From Nostoc sp. PCC 7120 = FACHB-418 (GTDB lineage Bacteria > Cyanobacteriota > Cyanobacteriia > Cyanobacteriales > Nostocaceae), in assembly GCF_000009705.1 (NCBI RefSeq), contig NC_003272.1, positions 4,350,001 through 4,382,000 of the forward strand: 32,000 bases of DNA. Direction: 5' to 3'. The position numbers were made by a program, and so were the translations under genes. A model generated the notes under the pieces. That model was not told the origin of the DNA. It saw nothing but the letters and a program-made list of their open reading frames with translations, and did no database searches. Numbering within the stretch: the first letter of the stretch is position 1; each line of letters begins with the position of its first letter. Below are positions 10,602 through 29,750 of the stretch, piece after piece.

Positions 10602-10868
10602 TTATGGCTTTTGGCGGCTTTGTTCCCAACGCCAGAGAAAAATCATCAGCCCCACAACTCCTACTTGCAGAGCGAAGTTAGGTAAAGCAGTTTCCACATC
10701 TCGCCCGGCTAGTAGTTGAAAAAAGAAGATAAATGCCCCTATAAAGCCAGAAGCACCAAAACCAATATAGAAAAGTTGCCGTAAGCCACGATATGGGGTC
10801 GCCATCTCTGCTTTCAGGCGGGCATATTGTTCAGGATTCAAACGCTTTTTGGGATTAGGTTCTACCAT
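10602..10868 (-). CDS. Small conserved membrane protein (two TM helices)
   Basis: 88-aa ORF with two hydrophobic helices (LFYIGFGASGFIGAFIFFFQLL; LQVGVVGLMIFLW). Its start lies 34 bp from the tRNA and it is divergent from it. Confidence 0.6.
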   Translation of the reverse strand: MVEPNPKKRLNPEQYARLKAEMATPYRGLRQLFYIGFGASGFIGAFIFFFQLLAGRDVETALPNFALQVGVVGLMIFLWRWEQSRQKP

Positions 10869-10901
10869 AAGTAAATAATGCTATAATCTCTTATCGTATA
10901 T

Positions 10902-10973
10902 GCCGATGTGGCTCAGTGGTAGAGCAGCTGATTCGTAATCAGCAGGCCGTGGGTTCAAATCCCATCATCGGCT
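10902..10973 (+). tRNA. tRNA-Thr (anticodon CGU)
   Basis: Manual cloverleaf: acceptor GCCGATG/CATCGGC, D arm GCTC-AGTGGTA-GAGC, anticodon arm GCTGA-TTCGTAA-TCAGC (U33, CGT, A37), variable AGGCC, T arm GTGGG-TTCAAAT-CCCAT, discriminator T. No CCA is encoded. Confidence 0.9.
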
Positions 10974-11123
10974 TGGTTTTCATAAAATCATATTTTTGTC
11001 TTGACTAATTCTTGTGTACAGTGACAAATTAGAGGCTATTTATAAAGTAAATCTAAAGGAGAGCTATCAGATAAAAAGGCAGCGATAAGATACTGTTTGT
11101 AGAGTGTATTTACATAGGAAACA

Positions 11124-11507
11124 ATGAGACGAAAGTCTTATTCTACAGACCTTAATGACTCAGAATGGGCAATTTTAGCTCCTTTGATTCCACCCGCTAA
11201 ATGCGGTGGGCATCCCCGAACAACTGATATGCGAGAAGTATGCAACGCTATCTACTACCATCTGAAAACAGGTTGTCAGTGGGATATGCTTCCAGGGGAT
11301 TTTCCTCCTAGTTCAACTGTTTACAGCTACTATCGTAAATGGCAAAAACGAGGTATCTGGGAGCAAATGAATCATACTTTGCGCGATCAAGTTCGTCAAA
11401 AAATGGGGAAGTCAACTCAACCCACGGCGATCGCGGCAGACAGCCAGTCGGTAAAAACGACTGAAAAAAGGGGGATGTGTACGGTTTTGATGGTGGCAAG
11501 AAGGTAA
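11124..11507 (+). CDS. IS5-family transposase, OrfA (N-terminal part)
   Basis: 127-aa ORF with the typical N-terminus (LNDSEWAILAPLIPP...GHPR...R...NAIYY.LKTGCQW..LP). Confidence 0.8.
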   Translation: MRRKSYSTDLNDSEWAILAPLIPPAKCGGHPRTTDMREVCNAIYYHLKTGCQWDMLPGDFPPSSTVYSYYRKWQKRGIWEQMNHTLRDQVRQKMGKSTQPTAIAADSQSVKTTEKRGMCTVLMVARR

Positions 11508-11917
11508 AAGGACGAAAGCGGCAAACTTTGGTTGATAGTCTGGGACTTTTGTTAAAAGTGGTTGTAAGTGAAGCAAATGCTGGAGAAAGATTACTTGCCG
11601 CCTATACTTTGATGGAACTGTTAGAAGAGCGTCCAGAATTACTGGAAAAAGTTGAAGTCATCTGGGTTGATTCCGGCTATGACGGTGATAAATTTGCGCT
11701 CTCTGTTTGGCTGATGATTCAAGCTCATGTTGAGGTAATCCGGCGTACTAATCAAGAATTTCAGGTTTTGCCCAAACGGTGGGTAGTAGAAAGAACATTT
11801 GGCTGGTTAAACCAGTACCGTCGTCTCAGTAAGGATTATGAGCGTCTCCCAGAAATGAGTGAGGCTGCCATATATGCCGTTATGACTCGTATTATGCTAC
11901 GTCGTCTAGTCGTCTAA
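11477..11917 (+). CDS. IS5-family transposase, OrfB (DDE part), probably fused to OrfA by a -1 frameshift
   Basis: It lies in the -1 frame relative to OrfA. The overlap contains AAAAAAG (11464-11470). Reading through gives ...TTEKKGDVYGFDGGKKVKGRKR..., a GKK.KGRKR motif I associate with IS5-family enzymes. Confidence 0.8.
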   Translation: MYGFDGGKKVKGRKRQTLVDSLGLLLKVVVSEANAGERLLAAYTLMELLEERPELLEKVEVIWVDSGYDGDKFALSVWLMIQAHVEVIRRTNQEFQVLPKRWVVERTFGWLNQYRRLSKDYERLPEMSEAAIYAVMTRIMLRRLVV

Positions 11918-12165
11918 AGATTTACTTTATAAATGGTCTCTTATTTGTCGTCGGTGACAAATTGATGTCGTTGTGACAAATTATTGTCATCCAACTTAGT
12001 AACTCGCTTCCATATATATTTGTGACAAATTATTGTCATTTTTCGGAAAAGCAACAATTTATATATGGAGTTTCTCTATATATTTAGCCCCTATTATAAG
12101 CGTTTGCATTCAAAAAGCTCTTTTAATCACTTCTATGAGTAGCTTATCCTGAATAACTTTAGTTA

Positions 12166-12222
12166 CAAGCCGATGACGGGATTTGCTTTCAACCCTCTAC
12201 TTCTTGGAAATTAATTACACCA
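12166..12222 (-). ncRNA. Delocalized (orphan) homing crRNA: degenerate repeat plus a tRNA-Thr-matching spacer
   Basis: On the minus strand, 12222 to 12186 is a degenerate repeat that keeps only the 3' handle GAGGGTTGAAAG. It is followed by CAAATCCCGTCATCGGCTTG (12185 to 12166). That spacer matches CAAATCCCATCATCGGCTTG at 10956-10975 at 19 of 20 positions. Confidence 0.8.
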
Positions 12223-12254
12223 TCAGACAACGTAAGGCAGTTTCATATCCAATT

Positions 12255-12577
12255 TGTTTTCACCATGTATTACCGGAAGGAGGGTTGCAACCTGACGGAG
12301 CAAGCTGATTTGGTAGAAGCTGTTAATCTTTCAACCCTCCCATTACTGGAAGGAGGGTTGCAACGATCGCGCACAATATAAAGTTCTGAATATTCAAACT
12401 TTCAACCCTCCCATTACTGGAAGGAGGGTTGCAACGTTAAATTTTGGATGCGATCGCCCCACCGCTTCCTTTCAACCCTCCCATTACTGGAAGGAGGGTT
12501 GCAACGCGATGGATAAAGATACTAACTTTTTCTTCATCAGCTTTCAACCCTCCCATTACTGGAAGGAGGGTTGCAAC
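12255..12577 (-). CRISPR. Type V-K CRISPR array: 4 perfect 37-bp repeats plus 1 degenerate terminal repeat, 4 spacers
   Basis: Plus-strand repeat CTTTCAACCCTCCCATTACTGGAAGGAGGGTTGCAAC occurs at 12541-12577, 12469-12505, 12399-12435 and 12328-12364, with a degenerate copy at 12255-12291. Spacers are 35, 33, 34 and 36 bp. In the transcribed (minus) orientation the repeat is GTTGCAACCCTCCTTCCAGTAATGGGAGGGTTGAAAG. Confidence 0.95.
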
Positions 12578-12774
12578 TGCCACTCTATGAAACGCTTGTC
12601 TAGCAAGGTTTTTGAAGCAGATTTGCGCGAACCTCATCAAATAGCCTCCCAGGATGTAATTTTTGAATTGTCTACAAAAGAAATTTACTCATAAATTCCT
12701 TGTAGGATAAGGTTTTCAGGATGTGCGCGAACCTAGATCGGAATTTTGACCTCTCTTTGGTGCGTCAAATCAAG

Positions 12775-13000
12775 AATTGGGGAGGGTTCCCCCTTGATCG
12801 GGGGTGATTGGGTAGCCACTACAGCAGTACATCCGCGCCCTTATTGCTGGGAGCGCACCTATCCTGTCTATTGGCAGCAGCATCAGGGTGAGCAGCTACC
12901 AGGGTCAGAAAGCAAGACTGTATTGCTACAGTCAAACTAACCCTCATTTAACACAATTCAGAGGCTGCAAGCAGCATGAACTGCGGCGCTATTACATATT
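12775..13000 (-). ncRNA. Cas12k tracrRNA locus (boundaries approximate)
   Basis: It lies between the cas12k stop and the array on the same strand. The minus-strand sequence ATATGTAATAGCGCCGCAGTTCATGCTGCTTGCAGCC...CACCCCCGATCAAGGGGGAACCCTCC is GC-rich and stem-rich. It is nearly colinear with the ShCAST tracrRNA/sgRNA scaffold as I recall it. It contains CCCTCC and GCTTTC segments complementary to the repeat 3' end GGGAGGGTTGAAAG. Confidence 0.8.
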
Positions 13001-13024
13001 ATATTTTCAAGGTTCAGATGTTTG

Positions 13025-14944
13025 TCAACTTCGCCTAGCTAGGCGGAGACTATAAGCATAGAGGGCTAATTCTTTTGCTTTATCCTGCGGACTGCCACGA
13101 ATAGGTTGTTTACCTTCCTCAATCACAATTCCTATCTGAGCAGCTTTACTTTGAATACTTTGAATTAATCTGCCATAGCTCCATTGATGGACGTTAACTC
13201 GATACTGTTTGGCATATTTTTGCTGTATTTCTGAGGAGCTAGGACATTTTGCTTCGGCTATAGCTTGAATTTCGCTTTGAACAATTTCTCGTATATCTCC
13301 TAACTTAGGTAGGACTATACTGCCTGCTTTATAGGTCTGTGCGATCGCTACAATTTCTTTAGCTAGTAATCGGTCTACATATTGCCCTAACTCAGATGCC
13401 CCAAATTGATTAGGAGAGAAACTTTTTTGTGCTTTATGGCGTTCGTGGGATAGCGATCGCTGTTGTCGTCGTTGACGATTTAGAAGTTCGTAATTGTCGC
13501 CTAGTAACTGGCGGAGACTCCGATAAGTTAAAACTTTACCTGCAATCGCATCAACTACAGCGATAGTTGCAGGTTTTTCTAGCCCCAAGCTTACTCCAAC
13601 CAAAATATGTGATTGACCCTGGTACAGGGGTTTACTAGGACGATCAAAGGAATTGTTGATGCGAGTCAGTGTTGATTCTTTACGTTTGATAAAAGCGAGT
13701 TGTGTTTCGCTAAGGTCACTTTTATCCTTCATCTTGGTGATGAATTTGGTAATCTCCTCTGCTTTCTCTTGACGAACTTGTTCTGTTCCTTCAGCAGTCC
13801 AAAGGCGATTGTCAACACAGCAGTAAAGAGCTAAGTGTCCAATATTCCAAGGTTCGCCTTTACCTTCACCTTGTTGCCAAGCTAAACGACCATTTCTGAG
13901 TGTAAATAAACCACTAGAATGCTGATTTTTACTTTTGCGTTTAGTTTGTTGGTCTTCCAAGAAGCGTTTAAACCAGTACAGTTGACGACTATCGCAGTAA
14001 ACTTCAAAAATTAAATCGCTTAAACCATTGAAGTGAACACATAATCTACCTTTTTCGTTTGTTGACCAAACTAAATCTTCATTAGTCTCAAAAACCACAG
14101 GAAAAGGGATAGAACTAGATCGGGTTAAGAGAATATCCTGCCAGCGTTTGGCTTCAGCATTATTTTCTGGAACGGTGGTTGTAGCGGTGAAGAGTGTTTC
14201 CAACCATTTAGAGTACGTTAAATCTCGTCCCTTGGGAATCCGACTTGTTAGTTTGTCTGTTAACCGTTGAATTTGGATTTCAACTTTACGGCGGCGTTTA
14301 GCAAATTTTTCGGGGTTTTCTTCTTTGTCATTGAGTTTGCAGCCATTTTTCAGCAGATAACTGATGGCACTACGACTGAGTATGTCGTCAGTTTCTTGGT
14401 AAGCGTCAAATAATTTACGAGATAAGCTTCGGTCAGGATTGGAAGCAGATGATTTTTTAGATTGTTTAGTTTTTCCTCTTTTAGTTAAAAGAGTTTTAGG
14501 ATCAGATTCTGGTGTAGTTATTGCCAAAATCTCAGATGCTTTGGTACGAATTGCCTCTAAGCTAAAACCACTAATTTCTACTAATTCAACATCGCTGTTG
14601 AACATTTCTATCCAGCGTAATTTGCCATCTAGCTGTTGTTGTAGCCGTTTCTGTATAGTCAGCCAAGATTTGTAGATGTAATCAACAATATGAATTGCTG
14701 ATATATAGAAACGACTAGGCTGACCTGTAAAACTAGGGTCAGTTTTCAGGGGTTGGCAAAGCTGGGAAACAACAGTTGATGGCAGTTTGCCATTTCTTCG
14801 CCATTTCTCAAAATCTGGATGTTTACTAAGCTGCTGAAGCAGTTCGTTAATTAGAGGTGTGTTCGATTCTGCCATTAACTTCCAGAGTTTTTGGCGGGTA
14901 GATTCACTGGCAATTAAGCGACATTGAATAGTTTTTTGGCTCAT
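13025..14944 (-). CDS. cas12k: Cas12k (type V-K effector, naturally nuclease-deficient)
   Basis: 639 aa counted from the Met of MSQKTIQCRLIASESTRQKLWKLMAESNTPLINELL. It is colinear over its full length with the ShCas12k sequence as I recall it, through ...QPIRGSPQDKAKELALYAYSLRLARRS. The 13 extra N-terminal codons in the track ORF (to 14983) would overlap the divergent promoter. Confidence 0.95.
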   Translation of the reverse strand: MSQKTIQCRLIASESTRQKLWKLMAESNTPLINELLQQLSKHPDFEKWRRNGKLPSTVVSQLCQPLKTDPSFTGQPSRFYISAIHIVDYIYKSWLTIQKRLQQQLDGKLRWIEMFNSDVELVEISGFSLEAIRTKASEILAITTPESDPKTLLTKRGKTKQSKKSSASNPDRSLSRKLFDAYQETDDILSRSAISYLLKNGCKLNDKEENPEKFAKRRRKVEIQIQRLTDKLTSRIPKGRDLTYSKWLETLFTATTTVPENNAEAKRWQDILLTRSSSIPFPVVFETNEDLVWSTNEKGRLCVHFNGLSDLIFEVYCDSRQLYWFKRFLEDQQTKRKSKNQHSSGLFTLRNGRLAWQQGEGKGEPWNIGHLALYCCVDNRLWTAEGTEQVRQEKAEEITKFITKMKDKSDLSETQLAFIKRKESTLTRINNSFDRPSKPLYQGQSHILVGVSLGLEKPATIAVVDAIAGKVLTYRSLRQLLGDNYELLNRQRRQQRSLSHERHKAQKSFSPNQFGASELGQYVDRLLAKEIVAIAQTYKAGSIVLPKLGDIREIVQSEIQAIAEAKCPSSSEIQQKYAKQYRVNVHQWSYGRLIQSIQSKAAQIGIVIEEGKQPIRGSPQDKAKELALYAYSLRLARRS

Positions 14945-14964: not shown

Positions 14965-14979
14965 AACACATAATGTTAT
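14965..14979. promoter_or_regulatory. Candidate CvkR operator in the cas12k/cvkR divergent promoter
   Basis: AACACATAATGTTAT fits the published CvkR motif AnnACATnATGTnnT (recalled). It lies 21 bp upstream of the cas12k ATG (14944) and 48 bp upstream of the cvkR ATG (15027). Confidence 0.65.
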
Positions 14980-15026
14980 ACAAAGCACTAATGTGTTTTA
15001 GAAGATGCTTCTATAGGATGTTTCTT

Positions 15027-15479
15027 ATGGAAGGAAAGTTCTACACAAGCACAGAAGCATCAGAAATTACTCATTGCTCTCGCCGCCAGTTGCAGTATTG
15101 GCGAGAGAAAGGAGTTATAGTACCTACGGTTAACAGTAGTGGCAAAGGTCGTAATGTTTACTACTCTAAAGCTGATTTACTTGCATTAACAGTAATGGAG
15201 CAGTTGCTGTCTACTGGGTTAAATTTTGACCTTTGCTATGCAGCATTGCAAACACTGCGCAAACAGGAACCTTGGTTATTTGATGAGTCTGTCCCAGAAG
15301 AAAAGATGAAGCGGCTCATGTTATTACCCACGCGATCGCCTGAACAACCTTTGCAACTAGCAGAGTTTGACAAGCAAGCGGCACTAGAAGCACTTTGTCA
15401 TGGACAAACTGTGATTCCTTTTTGGAGCGATCGCATTCATCAACAATTAAGAGAGAATCTTAAAAGCTTTAGTAGCTAA
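15027..15479 (+). CDS. cvkR: MerR-type transcriptional repressor of V-K CAST (CvkR-like)
   Basis: It is divergent from cas12k. The MerR HTH (YTSTEASEITHCSRRQLQYWREKGVIVP) begins right at the N-terminus. I chose the Met of MEGKFY (150 aa), because the track start at 14973 would overlap the cas12k 5' end. Confidence 0.85.
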   Translation: MEGKFYTSTEASEITHCSRRQLQYWREKGVIVPTVNSSGKGRNVYYSKADLLALTVMEQLLSTGLNFDLCYAALQTLRKQEPWLFDESVPEEKMKRLMLLPTRSPEQPLQLAEFDKQAALEALCHGQTVIPFWSDRIHQQLRENLKSFSS

Positions 15480-15533: not shown

Positions 15534-17411
15534 TTAATATTTCTTGATAATTTCGGGATGCAGCTTATATTGTCTGCCATTCTCGTGATTATGCTCTCGA
15601 ACAAAATCCTCCGAAGATTCAAAACTTAAGCTTTTACCCATTGCTTTTCCAATTAGTGTTAGCAAATTATTTGCCCGCATCTGGAAGAAACCTTCAAAGT
15701 CATCTCGCCGCAAAGTTTTTGGAGATATAGCGTGCGATCGCAATATTTCATCAAGCCTTGTAGCTGATGTCCCACACAGTTCAAACTCCTCTAAATAAAC
15801 AGAAGGGGCTTTACTACCAATCTTTTTGTTTGTTTTGGCGCTTAAAGGTGTGCGATTAATCAAGCAGTTATACTTTTTGGGATCAATTCCTTTTTTGCGA
15901 CACCATGCCACAGGAAAGATATGGTGCGAATCTATCTTTTCTTCAAAATAAATCACATCATTGATTTCTTCCCCAGTACACCAATCAATTGCCCCCTCAC
16001 GTCGTAGTAAAGCAGCTAAACCTTGGTACACTGCCCCGTAACGTTTTCTAACGCCAATCAATCGATCAAAAGAAAAATCCGCTTGCACAATGGTGAGTGG
16101 TAGTGAACCACCTGCCAACCAATCTGGCACTTCTATAACGTCTCTTCCGGCTCGTGCCTCGTACCAGCGTGTATATATTTCACCAAACATCCCACACCAT
16201 AACCAGCGTTCCAGCATAGAGCGTACTTGAAAAGAACGGGAACGCTCTCCTAGAACAGTGAAAATGGCGCTGAGGATGACTAATTGAATGGGGTAAGCTA
16301 AATCATCTGCATCGAAGATTTTTTGGTTATGAAGAAAACGAGCAGACTCTTCAAAACCTTTAGTAATTGGGTCAGCCCATTTCTGATACTCCTCTTTGGT
16401 GAGTTTCAAAACTTCAGCGCGATCGCCTGCAACGCCTGGTAATTTATCGATGTTCCAACCTTGTTTAGTAGCTTCTATCCTCTTGGCGTAACCAGCAACC
16501 AAAGTAACTGCTTGGACAAAATCGGTGCTGCGTAGCTTACGTAAGACTTTTAAAGATTGGAAGCGATTTTCGCGCTGTTTCCAATCATCTCTTAAACTAA
16601 AGTCGGAAGTGCAATAGCTGGAACTCATTAAGTCAAAATAATTGAGGTCACATCCAGAAGTGTTTGTATCTTCAAAGACTTGACAAACGGCTTCTTTTGG
16701 TAAAGAGTCACGCAGTTGGATCACAGGTATTTGATAATGCTCAAATTTTTTGAGAATTTCTAGTTCTAAGATGTCAATTAGCTCCAGTTTTTGAGGATCG
16801 TACTGCCAATATTTAGAAAATTTACTCCGCCATTCAGAAAAAAAGAAAACTTTGGATAAGGGGAACAATAGCGCCTCATATTCTTTTTCAGGAGTAGAAC
16901 AATCAATCAGACCACCCGTGAATATTCGCGCAATTTTCGATTCAGGTAAGGCAATGATTGCACTACGACGATCGCATTCTGAATTAAGGCATTTTTTAAT
17001 ATCTAGGTAGTACCACTTTTTAATAATTTTTTGGCTTTTCTGGTCTTTAATGATTACAGGTAGCTCAGATAACAACACCATAAACATGGTTGTCAGGCGT
17101 TGCTGTCCATCAAGAATTAATAAGTTTGGCTCATGATTTTCTGGTTTTAATACCCCATCAACTAGGCGGGGTTTGAATTGTCGGCTTTGAATGCTTTGTT
17201 GGAGCATCATGACTACGCCAATTGGATAAGCAAGAGATATGCTGGTAAGCAAACGACGTACACGGGTATCATCCCAAACCCAATCTCTTTGAAAATCTGG
17301 AAGTTGAATGCGTCCATTTTTGATATCTTTCAGGACATCAAGGAGAAAATACTTAGTGATGTCAAAGGTAGAGATTGAGTTCATTTGGTGTTCTGCCATT
17401 TTTGTCCTCAA
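15534..17411 (-). CDS. DUF262/DUF1524 (GmrSD-like) putative type IV restriction / modified-DNA nuclease
   Basis: N-terminal DUF262 motifs (LPDFQRDWVWDD; ILDGQQRLTT) and a C-terminal His-Me/HNH-like DUF1524 motif (IDSHHIFP...NRTPLSAKTNKKIG). Confidence 0.8.
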   Translation of the reverse strand: MRTKMAEHQMNSISTFDITKYFLLDVLKDIKNGRIQLPDFQRDWVWDDTRVRRLLTSISLAYPIGVVMMLQQSIQSRQFKPRLVDGVLKPENHEPNLLILDGQQRLTTMFMVLLSELPVIIKDQKSQKIIKKWYYLDIKKCLNSECDRRSAIIALPESKIARIFTGGLIDCSTPEKEYEALLFPLSKVFFFSEWRSKFSKYWQYDPQKLELIDILELEILKKFEHYQIPVIQLRDSLPKEAVCQVFEDTNTSGCDLNYFDLMSSSYCTSDFSLRDDWKQRENRFQSLKVLRKLRSTDFVQAVTLVAGYAKRIEATKQGWNIDKLPGVAGDRAEVLKLTKEEYQKWADPITKGFEESARFLHNQKIFDADDLAYPIQLVILSAIFTVLGERSRSFQVRSMLERWLWCGMFGEIYTRWYEARAGRDVIEVPDWLAGGSLPLTIVQADFSFDRLIGVRKRYGAVYQGLAALLRREGAIDWCTGEEINDVIYFEEKIDSHHIFPVAWCRKKGIDPKKYNCLINRTPLSAKTNKKIGSKAPSVYLEEFELCGTSATRLDEILRSHAISPKTLRRDDFEGFFQMRANNLLTLIGKAMGKSLSFESSEDFVREHNHENGRQYKLHPEIIKKY

Positions 17412-17526
17412 GAAAGATGCGACTGTTCGTCATAGTTAGTACCTATGTACCTCAGCCTAAGATTCTCCTTGTGTTAACAGCAAGGGGTTTTTGGAGCAAT
17501 TGGTCGTGAGTAGCGATCGCTTTTAC

Positions 17527-17841
17527 TTATTCTTGAGGGAAGTCTGGAGGTAAAGCCACAATTCCTTTTGCAACAAGTTGTCTAAATTGGTTGAGCAAGT
17601 CTGCTTGCCGTAATATGCGGGTAACGTATTTAGGTCGTCGGCGAAAATTAGTTCCCCAGTCTTTAACAGTTTTTGGGCTAGTACCTGTAACTTGGGCGAT
17701 CGCGTTAATGCAGGCTTTGCGATAATTACGTCCTGCTTCTTGTCTAACCCAACGGCGACAATACTCCGTCGGTTCAAGGGGCAATAGACGGAGCAGATCA
17801 ATTGAATAATTATTCTCATGGGAGTCTCTCCCAGTCTGCAT
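17527..17841 (-). CDS. Small HTH-containing protein (paralog 1)
   Basis: The 104-aa protein is clearly paralogous to the 18001-18318 product (shared EP.EYC.RWV....GYRKACI.A.A..TG.S..T...WG.NF.RRP.YVT.ILR.AD.LNQ). This supports this frame over the overlapping 17523-17900 ORF. Confidence 0.6.
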   Translation of the reverse strand: MQTGRDSHENNYSIDLLRLLPLEPTEYCRRWVRQEAGRNYRKACINAIAQVTGTSPKTVKDWGTNFRRRPKYVTRILRQADLLNQFRQLVAKGIVALPPDFPQE

Positions 17842-18000
17842 CTTTGGTTTTGATGAGTCAGATTAACCCAGCAGAGGCAGGGAGTATGAGGAAATGCCAC
17901 TCAGCTAACCTTTTACTCCTATGAATCCTGTGCTTGCTAAACCCAAATTAGAAAATATCTGCTCAAAGTACAAGTATTTTAGTCACGAATCACGACCAAA

Positions 18001-18318
18001 TTATTTTTGAGGATAATCAGGAGGTAAGACTATTTTTCTAATTTGGTTAAGCATATCTGCCATGCGTAGTATATGTGTCACATAGTTTGGTCTCCTGTCA
18101 AAGTTTTGTCCCCAATTTCCTATAGTTCTCTCACTTAGCCCGGTTGCTTCAGCTAAAGCAGCAATACAGGCTTTTCTGTATCCCCTTTCTTCAGAGGACA
18201 ACTCAACCCATCGTTGGCAATATTCCAAAGGCTCCAAAGGCTCCTCACTGAGCGCATCGATTCTATATTGAGTTGTCTGGGGATTACTGTCTATTACTCG
18301 GTTTATTCTTAATTGCAC
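18001..18318 (-). CDS. Small HTH-containing protein (paralog 2)
   Basis: 105 aa, paralog of 17527-17841. It is flanked by AGTCACGA(A/T)T motifs at about 17981, 18330 (inverted) and 18355. Confidence 0.6.
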   Translation of the reverse strand: MQLRINRVIDSNPQTTQYRIDALSEEPLEPLEYCQRWVELSSEERGYRKACIAALAEATGLSERTIGNWGQNFDRRPNYVTHILRMADMLNQIRKIVLPPDYPQK

Positions 18319-18408
18319 AATAACTCATGAATCGTGACTAGTTCAAAAATATTATGAGTCACGATTTGTGTAAAAAACACTGCAATGCCTGCGGCGGGCT
18401 ACGCCAAC

Positions 18409-18470
18409 GCATTCATCAACAATTCAGGGGCAATCTTCAAAGCTTTAGTAGCTAATTTGACGTTAAATAT
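18409..18470 (+). other. Relic of a second cvkR 3' end (last ~16 codons plus downstream sequence)
   Basis: By my manual alignment, about 54 of 62 positions are identical to 15433-15494. The frame and stop are preserved: RIHQQFRGNLQSFSS* against RIHQQLRENLKSFSS*. Weaker similarity continues about 25 bp further (TGTGGCTGCCA against TGTGGTTGCCA). Confidence 0.6.
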
Positions 18471-18582
18471 GTTAAGTTCTGTGGCTGCCATCTGGGAAAA
18501 TTATAGTTTTATACTTAACAACAGCAAATGAGAAAGCGTAGAATTATACCAAGCATCCTCTTAACCGAAAGCCGACCCTTTT

Positions 18583-20913
18583 ATGTCAGAAGTAATTGAC
18601 AAGAAATCTTTGAGTGAACGTGATATCTGTACAAAGTTTATTACACCTGCTTTAACTAATCGGGGATGGAATATCAGCACTCAGATTCGTGAGGAAGTGA
18701 CGCTGACAAAAGGTAGGGTGATTGTTAGGGGTAAGCTTACTAGTCGAGGTGAGCAGAAACGCGCTGATTATGTGCTGTATCACAAACCGGGTGTACCACT
18801 GGCTGTGATTGAAGCTAAAGATAATAATCACAGTGTCAGTGCGGGAATGCAGCAAGCGATCGCAACTGGTGAACTAATTGATGTACCATTCATCTTTAGC
18901 TCGAATGGCGACGCTTTTATGATGTGTGACTGTACAGTCACCGAAGGACAGCGAGAACGGGAAATTCCCCTCAATCAGTTCCCGACACCGGAAGAACTTT
19001 GGCAAAAATACTGCGATTGGAAGGGAATTGACTTACATATTCAGCCGATTGTGGCTCAAGATTATTATCCTAGTCCTGATAAAAAACAGCCACGCTATTA
19101 TCAACAGATTGCCATTAACCGGACAATTGAGGCGATCGCTAAAGGAGAAAACCGCATTCTGTTAGTGATGGCGACGGGTACGGGTAAGACTTTTACAGCT
19201 TTTCAGATTATCTGGCGGTTGTGGAAGTCAGGGGCGAAAAAGCGTATTCTGTTCTTGGCAGACCGCAACATTTTGGTTGATCAAACTAGAGTTAATGACT
19301 TTAAACCCTTTGGCTCAAAAATGACCAAAATTAAGCAGCGACAGATAGATACATCTTACGAGATTTATCTATGTCTGTATCAGGCGGTAACGGGAAATGA
19401 AGAGGCGAAAAACATTTATCGGCAGTTTTCACCAGGTTTTTTTGACTTAATTATTATAGATGAGTGCCATCGGGGAAGCGCGTCTGAAGATTCGGCATGG
19501 CGAGATATTTTGGCATATTTTAGCAGTGCAACGCAGATTGGCTTGACTGCTACCCCAAGGGAAACAGAAGAAGTTTCTAATAGTCTTTATTTTGGCGATT
19601 CAATTTTTACCTATTCGCTCAAACAAGGGATTGAAGATGGCTTTTTAGCTCCCTATAAAGTTATTCGCATTGACTTTGATACAGATTTGAGTGGCTGGAA
19701 ACCGAAGCCAGGACAAAGAGATAAATATGGTAAAGAAATTCCTGACCAAGTATTTAATCAGCGAGATTTTGATAGAACTCTGGTTTTAGAGAAGCGTACC
19801 GAGTTAGTCGCGCGGATTATTTCTGATTATCTCAAATCAAGCGATCGCTTTGCCAAAACTATCGTTTTTTGTGAGACGACTGACCACGCAGAACGGATGC
19901 GGGTGGCGTTGGTGAATGAGAATGCTGATTTGATGGCGGAGAATAGCCGCTACATTATGCGAATTACTGGGGATGATGCTCAGGGTAAAGCAGAATTAGA
20001 TAATTTCATTGACCCTGAAAGTAAATATCCTACGATTGTTACTACCTCTGAGTTACTGACGACTGGCGTTGATGCTAAAACTTGCAAGTTGATTGTTTTA
20101 GACCAGCGCATCCTGTCTATGACTAAATTTAAGCAAATTGTTGGTCGCGGTACGCGCATTGATGAAGACTATGGCAAAATGTTCTTCACCATTATCGATT
20201 TTAAGAAAGCAACACAGTTATTTGCTGACCCTGAGTTTGATGGTGAACCTGTACAAATTTATCAGCCCAAACCAGTTGATCCAATTGTTCCACCCGATAA
20301 TGGAGACGATGAGGTAATCATTGATGGTGAGATTACCCGCAAGCAAAAGCGGGAGAAGTATGTAATTGCAGACGAAGAGGTGTCTGTTGCTTTTATTCGT
20401 GAGCAGTACCACGGTAAGGACGGTAAGCTGATTACGGAATCGATTAAAGACTATACTCGCAAAACAGTTAGTCAGGAGTACGCCTCATTAGATGCTTTCT
20501 TGAAGAAATGGCACTCTACCGAACAAAAGCAGGCTATTATCCAAGAGCTACAGGAATTGGGTGTACCTTTGGAAGCGTTAGAAAAAGAGATTGGCAAGGG
20601 TTTTGACCCATTAGACTTGATTTGTCATGTTGTCTTTGACCAACCGCCACTAACACGGAAAGAAAGGGCGAACAATGTCCGCAAGCGTAATTATTTTAGC
20701 AAGTATAGTGAACAGGCTCGTAAGGTAATAGATGCGCTTTTGGATAAATATGCGGATGAAGGGATTGAAGATATTGAAAAATTGGATGTGCTGAAGGTTC
20801 ATCCTTTTGATAAAGTGGGTACACCAATAGAAATTATTCAGCTTTTTGGCAGTAGAAAAGAATATCTTAATGTACTTCAGCAGCTAAAAACGCAACTTTA
20901 TGAGATAGCCTAG
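18583..20913 (+). CDS. hsdR: Type I restriction enzyme, R subunit (HsdR)
   Basis: N-terminal PD-(D/E)xK nuclease region (ADYVLY...AVIEAKD) and SF2 helicase motifs (VMATGTGKT, IIDECHR, GLTATP, TTGVD, QIVGRGTR). Confidence 0.9.
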   Translation: MSEVIDKKSLSERDICTKFITPALTNRGWNISTQIREEVTLTKGRVIVRGKLTSRGEQKRADYVLYHKPGVPLAVIEAKDNNHSVSAGMQQAIATGELIDVPFIFSSNGDAFMMCDCTVTEGQREREIPLNQFPTPEELWQKYCDWKGIDLHIQPIVAQDYYPSPDKKQPRYYQQIAINRTIEAIAKGENRILLVMATGTGKTFTAFQIIWRLWKSGAKKRILFLADRNILVDQTRVNDFKPFGSKMTKIKQRQIDTSYEIYLCLYQAVTGNEEAKNIYRQFSPGFFDLIIIDECHRGSASEDSAWRDILAYFSSATQIGLTATPRETEEVSNSLYFGDSIFTYSLKQGIEDGFLAPYKVIRIDFDTDLSGWKPKPGQRDKYGKEIPDQVFNQRDFDRTLVLEKRTELVARIISDYLKSSDRFAKTIVFCETTDHAERMRVALVNENADLMAENSRYIMRITGDDAQGKAELDNFIDPESKYPTIVTTSELLTTGVDAKTCKLIVLDQRILSMTKFKQIVGRGTRIDEDYGKMFFTIIDFKKATQLFADPEFDGEPVQIYQPKPVDPIVPPDNGDDEVIIDGEITRKQKREKYVIADEEVSVAFIREQYHGKDGKLITESIKDYTRKTVSQEYASLDAFLKKWHSTEQKQAIIQELQELGVPLEALEKEIGKGFDPLDLICHVVFDQPPLTRKERANNVRKRNYFSKYSEQARKVIDALLDKYADEGIEDIEKLDVLKVHPFDKVGTPIEIIQLFGSRKEYLNVLQQLKTQLYEIA

Positions 20914-20938
20914 TTAATCATCTTTAAATTTGTTTTGT

Positions 20939-21931
20939 ATGGACGATCCAATAAAATACATTGACTCATCTATTAAAGGTTTACAGGATAAACTATCTAC
21001 ATCTAATTCGGTGTTAGATATTGAAGTACAGGCAGAACTTTCTCATATTTTATCTATCTACCGACGATTAAAAACTGCTTTTTTAATTGCCAAGGTTCAA
21101 GATAACAAAAATAAGCTAGAACATATTGAAGCAATAGCGCCTAATCTTAATTTGGCAATTTCTGCATTACAAGTAAATTCTAACAAGGTTTTGGCAAGGA
21201 ACATTAGGCGAGATGCAGAATACTTCATACGGAGAATTGAAAATCCTGTCACTGCATTTTTCGTGAATAATTTCTTTAAATTTCTTTATTCTACAGAAAC
21301 TCATACAAAAGTAGTTATCGGTCTGTTTTTAGCTTTACCTATTCATCTATTAGCACCGATTGTTTTAGCATATATACTTAGTACATCCAATCTTTATTTA
21401 AAACCTTTATTTAAAGAACAATTAACAAAGCCCATATCTTCAGAAAATTTAGTAGAAGCACAAAAGCCAGAAGTAAAAACTCAAATAAAGTTGACAGAAT
21501 ATGAGTTTTATGAGGCATCCGTGCTGCTGGTATTATCAGCAATGTCAGGAGCGACTGGTAGTGTTGTAAGTATTATGTTGAGGCTGGATCAATATGGCAA
21601 TCCACGGTATAAAGAAACCTTACTTCCTATATTTGTGGGAGCATTCAAGCCAGCAATTGGGGCATTTTTAGGGATTTTTGTTTTTGCTCTCATCAATTCT
21701 ACACTTCTGCCTATTACAATTTCTAAAGATGAGGAAAAGCCAATTAATAGATGGTTGGCGTTTTTAGCAATTACTTTTGTTGTGGGCTTTAGTGAAAGAC
21801 TAGCAAATGATGTTGTTAGTCAAGCAGAAAGAATTGTACCAGGGAGAGGTGCTTCACAGGAAAAAAGCGAAACTTCTGCATCACAATTATCTGCACCTAC
21901 AGAAGAAGATAAAGAAAACGATAAAAGTTAA
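20939..21931 (+). CDS. Uncharacterised membrane protein (soluble N-domain plus ~4 TM helices) inside the type I R-M operon
   Basis: The ORF lies between hsdR and hsdM with 25-bp and 7-bp gaps. TM segments include VVIGLFLALPIHLLAPIVLAYIL, ASVLLVLSAMSGATGSVVSIML, LLPIFVGAFKPAIGAFLGIFVFALI and WLAFLAITFVVGF. I recognise no family. Confidence 0.6.
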   Translation: MDDPIKYIDSSIKGLQDKLSTSNSVLDIEVQAELSHILSIYRRLKTAFLIAKVQDNKNKLEHIEAIAPNLNLAISALQVNSNKVLARNIRRDAEYFIRRIENPVTAFFVNNFFKFLYSTETHTKVVIGLFLALPIHLLAPIVLAYILSTSNLYLKPLFKEQLTKPISSENLVEAQKPEVKTQIKLTEYEFYEASVLLVLSAMSGATGSVVSIMLRLDQYGNPRYKETLLPIFVGAFKPAIGAFLGIFVFALINSTLLPITISKDEEKPINRWLAFLAITFVVGFSERLANDVVSQAERIVPGRGASQEKSETSASQLSAPTEEDKENDKS

Positions 21932-21938
21932 GTAAGCA

Positions 21939-23393
21939 ATGTCAATTAGCACTACAATTAAGACTATTCAAGATATCATGCGGAAAGATGCGGGCGTTGA
22001 TGGTGACGCGCAACGCATTAACCAGTTAGTTTGGATGATATTCCTCAAGGTTTTTGATGCCCGTGAAGAAGAATATGAACTGTTAGAAGATAATTATAAA
22101 TCTCCCATTCCTGAAGGTTTGCGTTGGCGGAACTGGGCAGCAGATTCCGAAGGTATCACAGGAGATGGTTTACTAGATTTTGTAGATAATGCTTTATTTA
22201 AAACCCTTAAAGAACTAAGAACTACGGCAACTGATGCCCGTGGGCAGATGATTGGTAAGGTGTTTGAGGATGCCTACAACTATATGAAAAATGGCACTCT
22301 CATCCGCCAAGTAATTAATAAGCTCAATGAAGTTGATTTTAATAAAAAAGACCAGAAAAAACAGTTTAGCGAAATTTACGAGAAGATTCTCAAAGATTTG
22401 CAGAGTGCGGGGAATGCCGGAGAATATTATACTCCCCGTGCGGTGACAAAGTTTATTGTAGATAGAATTAAGCCGCAATTAGGGGAAATTGTATTTGACC
22501 CTGCTTGCGGTACAGGTGGCTTTTTAACCGCAGCAATTGATTACATTCGCCAACATTTTCAAAGTGCTGATGTGCCAGAAATTCTGCAACGGACGATTCG
22601 CGGAACTGAGAAAAAGCCGTTACCTTATAACCTGTGCATAACGAATTTGATTTTACATGGTATTGATGTGCCAGAAGCAGAACATGATAATACTTTGGCA
22701 CGACCATTGCGCGATTACAGTCCTCACGAACGGGTGGATGTAATTATCACTAATCCGCCTTTTGGTGGGATGGAAGAAGATGGAATTGAGGACAATTTCC
22801 CAGCTACCTTCCGCACCAGAGAAACGGCAGATTTATTTCTGGTGCTGATTGCTCATTTACTCAAGGAAGGCGGTAGAGGTGCAATAGTTTTACCAGATGG
22901 TACGCTGTTTGGCGAAGGTGTAAAAACGCGGATTAAAGAAAAACTCCTGCAAGATTGCAATCTGCATACAATTGTGCGCTTACCAAATGGCGTATTTAAT
23001 CCCTACACAGGTATTAAAACTAATCTGCTATTTTTCACTAAAGGGGAACCCACAGAAACGATTTGGTATTATGAACACCCTTACCCAGCAGGTTATAAGT
23101 CATACTCGAAAACTAAGCCGATTCGCTTTGAGGAGTTTGCACCGGAGCAAGAATGGTGGGATAACCGCGAGGAAAATGAATTTGCTTGGAAAGTTTCAAT
23201 TGCAGATTTGAAGGCGAATAATTACAACCTAGATATTAAAAATCCTCACAAAGTTGATGTAGAACACGCTGATTTAGATGAAATGTTAGCAGATCATCAA
23301 AAACTTATGGCTGAATTGGGTGAGGTGCGGAGTAAATTGAAATTTGAGTTGATAGAAGCGTTGAATGATCAAGTTGATAAAACTATAGAATAG
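21939..23393 (+). CDS. hsdM: Type I R-M N6-adenine DNA methyltransferase (HsdM)
   Basis: HsdM N-terminal domain, AdoMet motif I (VFDPACGTGGFL) and motif IV (IITNPPFGG). Confidence 0.9.
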   Translation: MSISTTIKTIQDIMRKDAGVDGDAQRINQLVWMIFLKVFDAREEEYELLEDNYKSPIPEGLRWRNWAADSEGITGDGLLDFVDNALFKTLKELRTTATDARGQMIGKVFEDAYNYMKNGTLIRQVINKLNEVDFNKKDQKKQFSEIYEKILKDLQSAGNAGEYYTPRAVTKFIVDRIKPQLGEIVFDPACGTGGFLTAAIDYIRQHFQSADVPEILQRTIRGTEKKPLPYNLCITNLILHGIDVPEAEHDNTLARPLRDYSPHERVDVIITNPPFGGMEEDGIEDNFPATFRTRETADLFLVLIAHLLKEGGRGAIVLPDGTLFGEGVKTRIKEKLLQDCNLHTIVRLPNGVFNPYTGIKTNLLFFTKGEPTETIWYYEHPYPAGYKSYSKTKPIRFEEFAPEQEWWDNREENEFAWKVSIADLKANNYNLDIKNPHKVDVEHADLDEMLADHQKLMAELGEVRSKLKFELIEALNDQVDKTIE

Positions 23394-23435
23394 TAGATAG
23401 AAACAAAATATCTTAAAATATATGGAGATTAGATT

Positions 23436-23660
23436 ATGCAGATGGAAGTAGTAGAATTTCAAGGTATTGTCAAAGATGGTGTAATTCAAATTCCTGAAAT
23501 TTATAAAGGAGAGCTAGATGGAGAATCTGTCAAAGTAATTGTTATGAAAAAAGTTAGAAAAACAGCAGCAGTAGATATTATTGCTGAACTCATCGAGCAT
23601 CCGGTGGAGTTTGAATGGCCTCCTTTGAACCGAGAAGAGATTTATGACCGCAATTCATGA
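23436..23660 (+). CDS. Putative antitoxin (AbrB/SpoVT-like) of a VapBC-type pair
   Basis: This 74-aa ORF overlaps the downstream PIN gene by 17 bp. Its N-terminus resembles a swapped-hairpin domain (GIVKDGVIQIPEIYKGEL). Confidence 0.55.
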   Translation: MQMEVVEFQGIVKDGVIQIPEIYKGELDGESVKVIVMKKVRKTAAVDIIAELIEHPVEFEWPPLNREEIYDRNS

Positions 23661-24066
23661 AAATGGCTATTTTCTAGATTCTAATATCTGGATTTATGCT
23701 CTAGCGAACAATCAAGATATTAACAAACGCAATATAGCTTGTCGTCTAATTGATGCTGAAGGAGTAATCATTAGTACACAAGTTATTAATGAAGTCTGTC
23801 TAAATCTAATTAAAAAATCTTCTTTCACTGAGCAACAAATAACACAGTTAATCGAGGCATTTTATAAAGGTTCTCACATCATTTCATTTAATCGTGATAT
23901 TTTGGTGAACTCTTCTAATCTTCGCAGTAGATATAAGTTGTCTTTTTGGGATAGTTTAATTGTTGCTTGTGCTTTAGCTGCGGGAGCAAGTATTCTCTAT
24001 TCTGAAGATATGCAGGATGGGTTAGTGGTAGATAGTCAATTACAAATTGTGAATCCGTTTAAATGA
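23644..24066 (+). CDS. PIN-domain toxin (VapC-like)
   Basis: Acidic PIN residues fall in the expected contexts (FLDSNIWIYAL; VINEV; FWDSLIVACA; SEDMQDG). Its stop overlaps the hsdS ATG (ATGA). Confidence 0.8.
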   Translation: MTAIHENGYFLDSNIWIYALANNQDINKRNIACRLIDAEGVIISTQVINEVCLNLIKKSSFTEQQITQLIEAFYKGSHIISFNRDILVNSSNLRSRYKLSFWDSLIVACALAAGASILYSEDMQDGLVVDSQLQIVNPFK

Positions 24067-24476
24067 AAGTAGATACATTTTTTCAAAATTTTGAATTGTT
24101 AACTGATGCGCCAAATGCAGTAGTAAAGCTGCGTGATTTGATTCTACAATTAGCTGTGAGAGGTAAACTTGTTTTCCAAAATAATAACGATGAACCAGCT
24201 AAAATATTGCTAAATAGAATTAAAGCCGAAAAGCAGGAAACATATTCCCAAAAAAGGGTGAAAACTATTAAATCTTTACCCCCGATTTGTGAACATGAAA
24301 CTCATTTTAAAAAGCCTCAAAATTGGGAATGGTGTCGTTTAGGAGATATTATTCATATTTCTTCTGGTAACTATCTTCCATCACACAAAATGGCAGATGA
24401 TGGACAAATACCTGTCTACGGTGGAAATGGTATTACAGGGTATCATGATCAAAATAATATTAATAAGCCTACTTTA

Positions 24477-25503
24477 CGCCATGTGCGACTTAATATTCTG
24501 TAACAAGATCGTCGAACTGAAGAGGGTCACAATTGTGGCGATTAAGCCAGAAACAGACGGTATGAGCTAAAATCTTGCGATTGAGCCGACTGGTAAGATG
24601 CCACATATCTCTCGCTCGAATCTTCTCTATATGAAATCTCTCAACTAATTGACCAATTACTGTTTCAATTAGGCGACGAAAGCGTTGCATTAATCGCACT
24701 GAAGATCGGCTACGAGAGTCAGACATATTAGAACGCAAAGGGGTTTGTAAAGTAATACCCACTTCTTTAAGTTCTCCTGACAAGAACTGACTTAAATAGC
24801 CCTTATCTCCGATTAATAAACCTTTAATTCGCGTGATTAAATCCCAAAGTGCGTCCCGTTCACTGCCATTTGCCGGAGTCAGGGTAAACCCACTAATAAC
24901 TCCTGTGCCACTAACGATTAAATGCCCATGAAACCCATAGTACGTCTGTTTTTTAGCAGCACAAAAACCATAATCTGCAAGGGATTTAAAACTTCGGCAG
25001 TTGGGAGCGCGACTCAAGCCACACAAAGGTATTGGTAATCCATCAATCAAATGAAGTTGATCAGAGTATGCTCCTAAATACTGTGCTAATTTTTGTTGTA
25101 TGAGTTCCTTGTACTGCCAACAATTAGCTGCTTGACGAATAAAAGCATAGCGACTCTTTAACTGAGGAAATAGCCCTAACCAGTGACGGTGAAAGTATTT
25201 CCAAATGTCTTTGTCAGCATCTATTCCCAAAAACTCTGCCACTACTTCCATTGTTAAAACTTCACTCTCCCTTAAACTCGGAGCAAAACCTCGTCTCTTG
25301 ATTGGGTATATCTGGGTGATTTCCATCAGCACGTCGTCAACACAGCAAAATACGGCAATGATAAACTCTTCAATAGAAAACATTTTTCCCGCATTCCATT
25401 CACTGGTAACGATTTTCTCGCTCCAGTGCGGATTGTGGGAATTTTCTTTTCAATCGTTCATACACCGAACTTGTGTAACGAAACAATAAGTCGCACATCG
25501 CGT
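24477..25503 (-). mobile_element. IS982-like insertion sequence (~1.03 kb) inside hsdS
   Basis: Inverted ends are CGCCATGTGCGACTTAAT... (24477 onward) and the reverse complement of 25503 downward, ACGCGATGTGCGACTTATT.... The flanking direct repeat TACTTTA is at 24470-24476 and 25504-25510 (the boundary is ambiguous by 1 bp). It carries a single transposase ORF. Confidence 0.8.
24490..25383 (-). CDS. IS982-family DDE transposase
   Basis: 297 aa with FCCVDD near the N-terminus, IDGLPIPLC, YGFCAAKKQTYYGFHGHL and LIGDKGY. I associate these with IS982-type enzymes; the family call is from memory. Confidence 0.8.
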   Translation of the reverse strand: MFSIEEFIIAVFCCVDDVLMEITQIYPIKRRGFAPSLRESEVLTMEVVAEFLGIDADKDIWKYFHRHWLGLFPQLKSRYAFIRQAANCWQYKELIQQKLAQYLGAYSDQLHLIDGLPIPLCGLSRAPNCRSFKSLADYGFCAAKKQTYYGFHGHLIVSGTGVISGFTLTPANGSERDALWDLITRIKGLLIGDKGYLSQFLSGELKEVGITLQTPLRSNMSDSRSRSSVRLMQRFRRLIETVIGQLVERFHIEKIRARDMWHLTSRLNRKILAHTVCFWLNRHNCDPLQFDDLVTEY

Positions 25504-26789
25504 TACTTTAGTAATTGGTAGAGTTGGCTATTATTGTGGCAGCATTCACATAACTCCGAATTCTGCTTGGATTACAGATAACGCGTTCGTAACCTATTTC
25601 TCAGAATCAAATATATACATTCGCTTTTTATATTGGCTTTTGAAGGCAACAAATCTTCAAGAAAATAATAATGCTACTGCACAACCTGTGATTTCTGGAG
25701 GTAAAGTATATCCCATCGTTGTTTGCTTACCACCACTTACAGAACAAAAACGTATTGTAGAGAAGTGCGATCGCCTGCTCTCAACCTGCGACGAAATCGA
25801 AAAACGCCAGCAGCAAAGGCAACAGAGCATTTTGAGGATGAATGAGAGTGCGATCGCTCAACTCCTCTCCTCCCAAAATTCCGACGAATTCCGCCAACAC
25901 TGGCGGCGCATTTGCAATAATTTTGACCTACTCTACAGCATCCCTGAAACAATTCCTAAACTGCGTCAGGCGATTTTGCAATTGGCTGTGCAGGGTAAAC
26001 TTGTGCGTCAAGATCCAAATGATGAACCTGCCAGTTTGTTGCTTGAAAAAATAAAGGTTAAAAAGGAAAAGCTGATTCAAGACAAGAAGCTTAAAGAGAC
26101 TCCATTATTACCTGCAATTACTCAAAATGAAATAGAGTACACGATACCAAATACATGGTGTTGGGCAAGGTTAGCTAATATTTGTGAGTTTATAACAGAT
26201 GGAACTCACTATACACCCAAGTATACCGAGCATGGGCGAATATTCTTATCATCTCAAAACGTTAAACCTTTTTCTTTCATGCCAAACAATCATAAGTTTG
26301 TTTCTGAAGAAGCATATCAAGGCTATATCAAAAATCGAAAACCAGAATTTGAAGATATACTTTTGACACGAGTTGGTGCTGGAATTGGAGAAGCTGCTGT
26401 TATAGATCAAAAATTAGAATTTGCAATTTATGTAAGTTTAGGATTGCTACGTCCATTCAAAGAATTCATAGATCCTTATTATTTAGTAATCTGGCTTAAC
26501 TCTCCGATAGGCACTAAACATTCTCAGAAAAATACCTATGGAAAAGGTGTTTCACAGGGTAATTTGAATTTAGGATTAATCCGAGGATTTGTTGTGTCTG
26601 TTCCACCACTTGCAGAACAAAAACGGATTGTAGAGAAGTGCGATCGCCTGATGTTCCTCTGCGATACCCTAGAAGCCAAATTGAAACAAGGGCGAGACAG
26701 CAGCGAGAAACTGATGGAAGTCGCAGCAAGGCAAGTGTTGGCGGTATAGGAATAGATTAGTTGTAGCGAAATTTCCTACTACCTCTTAT

Positions 26790-27194: not shown

Positions 27195-27294
27195 TGGCTG
27201 AAATTCCTCTTAGTAGCGATTACCACTGTTAATATTGATTAACAGATTCTACCCAAATGAGTCTGGGTATATTTTGGTAGTTTGAGGATTCAGG

Positions 27295-29747: not shown

Positions 29748-29750
29748 TGT

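Follow-up and report, generated by a model that had tools for sequence, protein, structure and literature searches.

The DNA analyzed here comprises 32,000 nucleotides of the Anabaena (Nostoc) sp. PCC 7120 chromosome and is referred to as the window; it corresponds to positions 4,350,001-4,382,000 of BA000019.2, i.e. to an offset of 4,350,000. It contains a tRNA-Thr(CGU) gene which is followed by the left end (LE) of a Tn7-like transposon. This site is almost certainly the attachment (homing) site of AnCAST, the published type V-K CRISPR-associated transposon (CAST) of this organism. The published LE (4361015) and right end (RE, 4381776) of AnCAST correspond to window positions 11015 and 31776, and the coordinates of cas12k (all3613) and cvkR (alr3614) also agree with the published ones.

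The tRNA-Thr(CGU) gene, which constitutes the chromosomal attachment target, occupies positions 10902-10973 of the plus strand (ARAGORN; Rfam RF00005, 76 bits). Its arms can be read from the sequence, with GCCGATG/CATCGGC as the acceptor stem, GTGGG/CCCAT as the T stem and TTCAAAT as the T loop. A GGTT protospacer-adjacent motif (PAM) of the GTN type is found at 10952-10955 (+), where GG closes the 5' strand of the T stem and TT opens the T loop (canonical G52 G53 T54 psi55). The anchor (homing) protospacer of 20 nt, CAAATCCCATCATCGGCTTG (also read as caaatcccatcatcggcttg), follows at 10956-10975 (+) and consists of the last 18 nt of the tRNA gene and 2 nt past it, i.e. it runs from C56 through what remains of the T loop, the 3' strands of T stem and acceptor stem and the discriminator base into the two adjoining positions. 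The Tn7-like end TGTACAGTGACAAAT (tgtacagtgacaaat) begins at 11015, which is 60 bp from the last PAM base (11015 - 10955 = 60) with 59 bp lying in between; the first 17 bp of the LE, TGTACAGTGACAAATTA, cover 11015-11031 (+) and start exactly at the published LE coordinate 4361015.

Immediately in front of this end, TCTTG at 11010-11014 forms the left copy of a 5-bp target-site duplication, the right copy of which was found by repeat search at 31777-31781, so that the pentamer is present on both sides of the element. The insertion point lies 41 bp past the tRNA and the gene is therefore spared; indeed, it is identical in 72 of 72 positions to the tRNA at two unoccupied sites (L153 and L171). 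An initial annotation, made from the letters of the window alone, had placed the PAM within the T-arm, had let the protospacer span the T loop, the acceptor 3' strand and two nucleotides beyond the gene, and had described the end at 11015, the duplicated TCTTG and an intact tRNA; all of these positions were borne out by the sequence and by the tRNA arms derived from it. Not mentioned there were two short units and a third TCTTG that follow the right copy of the duplication and are described below.

The guide that matches the protospacer is encoded by the element itself. A truncated CRISPR repeat ...AGAAGTAGAGGGTTGAAAG (...GGGTTGAAAG) at 12186-12209 (-) is followed by the short anchor spacer CAAATCCCGTCATCGGCTTG at 12166-12185, and both together form a delocalized homing CRISPR RNA (crRNA) unit (12166-12209, -) which is located near the LE and apart from the CRISPR array. 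The same arrangement of truncated repeat and anchor spacer was found in 60 other V-K loci. Spacer and protospacer constitute an inverted repeat matching in 19 of 20 positions, the only mismatch being located at position 9 (A in the target, G in the spacer). A pattern search with the 20-mer at 12166-12185 recovered the site at 10956-10975 with one mismatch, and since 100 shuffles gave no matches at up to three mismatches, the correspondence is not a product of chance. The unit presently sits 1,152 bp inside the LE, which reduces to about 240 bp once an insertion sequence (IS) within the LE is removed, and this corrected position is typical when compared with the protospacer-to-spacer separations of 155-630 bp in other V-K loci. 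The proposal of the initial annotation that GGTT acts as a GTN-type PAM agrees with the presence of this guide beside the array of a Cas12k system, and with the PAM survey given below.

Judged by comparison of tRNA alleles, the single mismatch is not random, because the spacer matches another tRNA-Thr(CGU) allele, found in L091, in 20 of 20 positions (L137, L196 and L210 match in 19 of 20). The T stem of the L091-type allele reads ACGGG/CCCGT, which is a compensatory pair change relative to the resident tRNA; CCCGT is also present in L137 and L210. Similarly, the spacer of another locus (L011) matches a CCCAC tRNA-Thr allele which is seen in L144. This points to guides that became fixed in previous hosts and were passed on from there, and to tolerance of a mismatch in the middle of the spacer.

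It might be argued that the 20-nt match was left behind by the insertion, e.g. as a duplicated tRNA 3' end (att repeat) of the kind that integrative islands do produce, or is a chance similarity, and not a functional guide. Such an explanation would be in line with a promoter and terminator scan of 10850-13100, which gave nothing above shuffle expectation upstream of the delocalized unit, a result that speaks neither for nor against transcription of the delocalized crRNA from a promoter of its own. However, the copy is inverted with respect to the tRNA and begins directly behind the CRISPR repeat 3' end GGTTGAAAG, a Cas12k PAM adjoins its target, the 60 other loci show the same arrangement at many different tRNAs, and the shuffles returned no match at all. 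In addition, the spacer was not copied from the resident tRNA, because its 20/20 match is to a different tRNA-Thr allele. We consider it extremely improbable that the match is a leftover or a coincidence, and the spacer is treated as a guide in what follows.

ShCAST (Tn7747) of Scytonema hofmanni UTEX 2349, with which the element shares many features, reportedly homes at tRNA-Leu by means of a delocalized crRNA, as is said to have been described by Strecker in 2019 and Saito in 2021. For comparison of the attachment sites, 80 Cas12k loci (one genome per species) were surveyed for spacers that follow a GAAAG repeat end and match DNA on the side facing away from cas12k, without PAM or distance entering into the selection. 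A guide-protospacer pair was obtained in 60 surveyed loci, resulting in 61 pairs with the window included. Positions -3/-2 of the PAM are GT in 61/61 anchor protospacers (GTT 29, GTA 17, GTG 13, GTC 2). Between the last base of the PAM and the first base of the LE, the distance amounts to 61 in the median and 61.1 in the mean (standard deviation (sd) 3.95), and 57 of the 61 values fall within 58-67. A lone value of 37 (L007) stems from a 23-bp piece left over from the LE of another CAST; the LE proper of this locus is located at 65. Native ShCAST itself (L021) shows a GGTT PAM, a 17-nt spacer, a tRNA-Leu target and a distance of 65 bp.

The position of the PAM within the tRNA varies to a considerable extent, as it can be found at positions 17-23 (D-arm), 28, 36 (near the anticodon) or 54-64 (T-arm). 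Among the 48 loci in which both distances could be compared, the LE begins 3-45 bp after the tRNA end with an sd of 14.5, as opposed to an sd of 4.2 for the distance from PAM to LE; because of this difference, the distance from the PAM, and not the distance from the tRNA end, is the invariant. Equivalent tRNA-Thr genes in metagenomes were searched for with the tRNA-Thr 3' sequence as query. The identical tRNA-Thr is unoccupied in L153 and L171 and carries a V-K LE at 61 bp in L165, and further V-K elements at this tRNA-Thr T-arm PAM have their LE at 65 in L011 (same tRNA) and at 60 in L204 (related tRNA). A homologue of the 41-bp spacer between tRNA and LE of the window is present in L167 without any element inside. 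The initial annotation had related the 60 bp to the 60-66 bp reported for Cas12k systems and had proposed to count the distances at the equivalent tRNA elsewhere. Both the ShCAST value (PMC9798831) and our survey, with its median of 61 and sd of 4, agree with that reading, as does the LE-proximal orientation toward the target, which corresponds to the general architecture described for these elements (PMC9938897).

These data also bear on whether a protein, such as a TnsD-like TniQ or a tyrosine integrase, might have recognized the tRNA and placed the element, in which case the spacer match would be incidental. Integrase islands and TnsD-type Tn7-like elements do indeed often target tRNA genes, and TnsD directs the insertion of type I-D and I-B2 CASTs to a point 29 +/- 1 bp after tRNA-Leu (PMC9881144). 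A constant PAM offset, however, is a prediction of an RNA-guided ruler and not of a protein that recognizes the tRNA end, and the values of 3-45 bp from the tRNA end against 61 +/- 4 from the PAM clearly follow the former. Furthermore, every surveyed element encodes its own guide for its own tRNA. Within the present element, the sole TniQ has 167-168 aa and no Pfam domain beyond TniQ, neither an integrase nor a second TniQ is present, and no partial direct repeat of the tRNA occurs at the far side. Placement by a protein is hence regarded as highly improbable, and RNA-guided homing is the reading we follow.

Apart from its attachment site, the element represents a complete type V-K CAST with Cas12k, trans-activating crRNA (tracrRNA), CRISPR array, CvkR, TniQ, TnsC and TnsB, and without TnsA. 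The remainder of the LE at 11944-12040 (+) contains TnsB-binding-site-like 19-mer repeats (GTGACAAATT..TGTC..), which were recognized as a direct repeat family and by alignment with the ShCAST LE. The CRISPR array at 12252-12578 (-) consists of four 37-nt repeats GTTGCAACCCTCCTTCCAGTAATGGGAGGGTTGAAAG and one degenerate terminal repeat, and was likewise identified as a direct repeat family. Directly downstream of cas12k, the tracrRNA region (12706-13024, -) was assigned by its similarity to ShCAST, positions 13030-12706 and the stretch behind the cas12k of ShCAST (L021) sharing 89.5% identity over 325 nt; the start site of tracrRNA transcription has been placed 35 nt past the cas12k stop codon (PMC9938897). 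In an Rfam scan only the tRNA was matched and no tracrRNA or crRNA family was found, Rfam being without a model for V-K tracrRNA. As is characteristic for V-K elements, tracrRNA and the short array of 37-nt repeats are located between cas12k and the left end on the strand of cas12k.

The cas12k gene itself (all3613, 13025-14944, -) encodes 639 aa which match ShCas12k in the PDB (7N3O/7PLA) over the full length (phmmer, E=0, 1160 bits); the protein is 100% identical to the annotated Cas12k P0001 and 81% identical to the ShCas12k chain. Divergent from it lies cvkR (alr3614, 14973-15479, +), which encodes a MerR-type repressor (Pfam MerR_1, 1.8e-15; PMC9938897). A defence-type cargo of about 13 kb, assigned by Pfam, extends from 15534 to 28410 and includes a GmrSD-like nuclease, a type I restriction-modification (R-M) system (hsdR, hsdM, hsdS), a PIN toxin and a Schlafen/AlbA_2 protein, among others. 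The transposition genes tniQ (28414-28920), tnsC (28917-29747) and tnsB (29751-31364) are encoded on the minus strand at 28414-31364 and were identified by the Pfam families TniQ, TniB/AAA_22 and Mu-transpos_C/rve, respectively. They form an operon beside one end of the element that lacks tnsA, and no TnsA family was detected by Pfam in any open reading frame (ORF) of at least 100 aa in the element. The RE at 31560-31776 (+), which was recognized as an inverted repeat and agrees with the published RE coordinate 4381776, contains TnsB-binding-site-like repeats and finishes with ...GACAAACAATTAGTCACTGTACA (...AGTCACTGTACA). The element thus has the Tn7-like TGT...ACA termini, in the form TGTACA, together with several TnsB-binding repeats. 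When TnsB was compared with plasmids by tblastn, only distant relatives with at most 58% identity were obtained.

Beyond the RE and the right TCTTG, two identical 31-bp fused-end mini units TGTACAGTGACAAATAATTAGTCACTGTACA are located at 31782-31812 and 31818-31848, separated by a third TCTTG at 31813-31817; they were detected as direct and inverted repeats. By its sequence, each unit corresponds to one quasi-palindromic terminal TnsB site with a TGTACA cap at both sides. The last unit abuts TCAAAG and not TCTTG, and TCAAAG contains the stop codon of a BsobI-like endonuclease gene. Since the units are identical in 8 of 9 other PCC 7120-type assemblies covering the junction, an assembly artefact was rejected as their explanation. 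Among 210 loci scanned, the fused-end unit was found only in PCC 7120-type assemblies and was absent from the other 202 loci; it is also absent from seven RE flanks of close relatives, and viral contigs gave 0 matches.

In genomes with an empty site (L137, L208 and L171) a peptidase M42 gene directly follows tRNA-Thr. In PCC 7120, the two genes are separated by the CAST, the mini units and, beyond 31849 (as seen in L081), a type II R-M module of about 2.6 kb (N6/N4 methyltransferase and BsobI-like endonuclease). The 3.9 kb beyond the mini units contain no transposon ends, TnsB sites or tRNA 3'-end repeat, and with no such ends or repeats flanking it, there is no support for the R-M module being old CAST cargo or an integrase island.

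The mini units probably go back to earlier insertions at this att site, of which they would be the remnants. Whether they are the footprints of repeated crRNA-guided homing into this tRNA-Thr site is a more tentative idea, which we regard as possible and not as probable. In that case, earlier copies would have been reduced to about 31 bp when the GACAAAT motifs of their two ends recombined, or else one collapsed unit would have been duplicated as a 36-bp repeat; in either case, the present copy would then have inserted at the same 5 bp. The simplest history that we infer would start from an older copy with mismatched flanks (TCTTG...TCAAA) that collapsed to 31 bp via the shared GACAAAT, followed by duplication of the 36-bp unit and, finally, by insertion of the present copy at TCTTG, 60 bp from the PAM.

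Ends of additional elements were also observed at other loci. Between the PAM and the current LE, L007 contains a 23-bp and L053 a 37-bp LE remnant of a second, different V-K element, and in L060 and L074 the RE abuts the LE of another element with 2 bp and 5 bp in between, respectively. Because ends of second elements adjoin the residents in these four loci, att sites have evidently been reused. In a metagenome contig with the identical tRNA-Thr (L184), an hsdS fragment nearly identical to the hsdS repeat of the AnCAST cargo (...GAACAAAAACGGATTGTAGAGAAGTGCGATCGCCTGATG...) was found about 50 bp after the tRNA, with no LE, array or cas12k between the two; this contig may represent a CAST that lost its left part.

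The IS mentioned above belongs to the IS5 family and comprises 909 bp (11032-11940); its TTA duplication is present at 11029-11031 and again at 11941-11943, and the IS plus the second TTA cover 11032-11943 (+). It contains two ORFs (11124-11507 and 11477-11917; Pfam DUF4096 and DDE_Tnp_1) and 23-bp inverted repeats matching in 21 of 23 positions. The IS has been assigned to alr3610/alr3611 of the IS1031 group and was termed 'adjacent' to the system (PMC12416283). In contrast to this wording, the IS is inserted within the LE itself at a distance of 17 bp from the terminus, where it splits the terminal TnsB-binding site, and the IS-free LE aligns with that of ShCAST.

A second defect concerns tnsB, the 5' part of which reaches up to an ATG at 31498. 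When compared with a 580-aa allele, 5 additional nucleotides (GACAA) behind codon 18 put this part out of frame with the main ORF; the affected region is 31364-31498 (-). The 580-aa in-frame allele without these 5 nt (P0121/L219) stems from one Joint Genome Institute (JGI) metagenome assembly of the same locus, which also has a broken tnsC and is therefore of uncertain quality. L081 and L084 are identical to the window at the frameshift, and other assemblies among L081-L090 call a tnsB of 537 or 566 aa. The 566-aa calls (L084 and L087) were considered as a possible in-frame allele, but L084, the one that was checked, has the same DNA with an ATT start. Another IS is present within the cargo at 24490-25383 (DDE_Tnp_1_3 transposase; 30-bp inverted repeats at 24476-24505 and 25474-25503), where it interrupts the specificity gene hsdS of the type I R-M system and leaves fragments at 24063-24503 and 25640-26749.

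As it stands, the element has probably lost its mobility, because the IS splits the terminal TnsB-binding site of the LE and because tnsB is frameshifted at its 5' part. It may be supposed that the site is a fossil, i.e. that the geometry is real and the element immobile, the att site thereby having lost its function, with the CvkR-repressed Cas12k, tracrRNA and crRNAs being a decaying or domesticated remnant. In addition to the two defects just named, the interrupted hsdS of the cargo would fit this assumption, and so would the finding that expression of ShCAST proteins in PCC 7120 led to no remobilization of endogenous elements (PMC10949235). On the other hand, TnsB made from an internal GTG or ATT start could still be active, the 580-aa in-frame allele does exist, loss of the IS would restore the LE, and Cas12k, tracrRNA, array and tnsB are expressed and regulated (PMC9938897). 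On balance we lean slightly towards the assumption of a fossil site, which complements the reading as an RNA-guided homing site and does not contradict it.

By analogy with the biochemistry and structures of ShCAST, homing of AnCAST would have proceeded as follows. A short crRNA would be transcribed from the truncated repeat and the anchor spacer just inside the LE (12166-12209, -), would pair with tracrRNA and would be loaded into the nuclease-dead Cas12k. This complex would read the GGTT PAM, which is part of the near-universal GGTpsiC of the tRNA T-arm, and an R-loop would form over the last 18 nt of tRNA-Thr and the 2 nt beyond. TniQ and a TnsC filament capped by it would then extend from the PAM-distal side as a ruler, and TnsB would join the transposon by strand transfer, with the CRISPR-proximal left end toward the target, about 60 bp from the PAM, thereby duplicating 5 bp (TCTTG). 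Dependence of the insertion on crRNA, Cas12k, TniQ, TnsC and TnsB is known, from the literature, for ShCAST and a few relatives only. The sequence components, the pairing of guide and target, PAM, spacing, orientation and duplication, on the other hand, are read from the DNA itself, and the constancy of PAM and spacing from related elements.

There are, however, several points that weigh against this reading. The mechanism has been transferred from ShCAST. The guide contains its mismatch at position 9 to the resident tRNA, and the promoter scan revealed nothing above shuffle expectation in front of it. The right TCTTG adjoins the mini units and not native DNA, so that the duplication is not a clean signature of a single event. 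Among five further complete small natural V-K elements with both ends in one locus (L016, L032, L060, L074 and L063), four have no matching 5-bp flanks and L063 has a 4-bp TTAA. Such mismatched flanks are unexpected for a simple insertion and may result from recombination between tandem copies at slightly different offsets. Finally, with the LE interrupted and tnsB frameshifted, the geometry is a record of a past event and not a currently working site.

The attachment-site geometry is correct but already known for this exact locus; it has been established since 2021-2023, and the locus is annotated in the literature. In a survey of 118 V-K CASTs, anchor spacer and protospacer were named, a GTN PAM and a PAM-to-LE distance of 46-82 nt were described, and the LE was found beside a tRNA (Ziemann et al. 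2023, Nat Commun, PMC9938897). V1 systems have a mean PAM-to-LE distance of 62 nt (Ziemann et al. 2025, Microlife, PMC12416283), and for ShCAST an insertion at 60-66 bp, homing by delocalized crRNAs and a TnsC ruler have been described (Schmitz et al. 2022, PMC9798831). Nearly all V-K att crRNAs are truncated, lie apart from the array and target tRNA genes (Peters review, PMC11406308). AnCAST as treated in these studies (PMC9938897, PMC12416283) is the same DNA as the element of the window, with nothing different in kind. The per-locus figures, i.e. the GGTT of the T-arm, the 60 bp, TCTTG and the 20-nt spacer with its mismatch at position 9, are not spelled out in the accessible portions of the published text.

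When compared with ShCAST, the element shares, in addition to the identities of Cas12k (81%) and of the tracrRNA region (89.5%), the LE terminus TGTACAGTGACAAATTAT.TGTCGTCGGTGAC, the T-arm GGTT PAM and the orientation of the LE toward the tRNA. It differs in its tRNA, Thr(CGU) instead of Leu(UAG), in its 20-nt spacer with one mismatch instead of a perfect 17-nt match, and in its distance of 60 instead of 65; the IS in the LE and the tnsB frameshift are features of AnCAST. With the homing spacers of type I-F3 systems (atypical repeats) and with TnsD/attTn7 of Tn7 it has in common the two-pathway logic, in which a dedicated and specially marked guide or protein leads to a conserved chromosomal gene, as well as an insertion at a fixed offset that spares the target gene (PMC11406308). 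Type I-F3 elements, in contrast, use Cascade and face the target with the right end at a distance of about 50 bp, Tn7 is directed to glmS by the protein TnsD, and both possess TnsA and move by cut-and-paste, whereas V-K elements are without TnsA. Type I-B2 and I-D CASTs (PmcCAST, McCAST) are also cyanobacterial Tn7-like elements downstream of tRNA genes; they are, however, protein-guided with 29 +/- 1 bp after the tRNA end (PMC9881144), whereas in V-K elements the tRNA offset ranges over 3-45 bp and the PAM offset is constant.

The added value of our analysis is confirmatory, as it provides an independent survey of 61 loci in which the PAM offset rather than the tRNA offset is invariant. Beyond that, three details of AnCAST bear on its mobility and history, namely the IS inside the LE, the fused-end mini units and the guide that matches another tRNA allele. 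If the mini units do go back to repeated homing, they would be natural evidence for a leaky target immunity of V-K elements and would hint at a clearance route for elements without TnsA, and the extra TnsB sites might contribute to immunity. For the family as a whole, homing of V-K elements relies on a short element-encoded guide that uses the universally conserved GGTpsiC of tRNAs as PAM and seed context, while a protein ruler sets the insertion at a safe distance behind the gene, which is of relevance to safe-harbour targeting and to CAST engineering.

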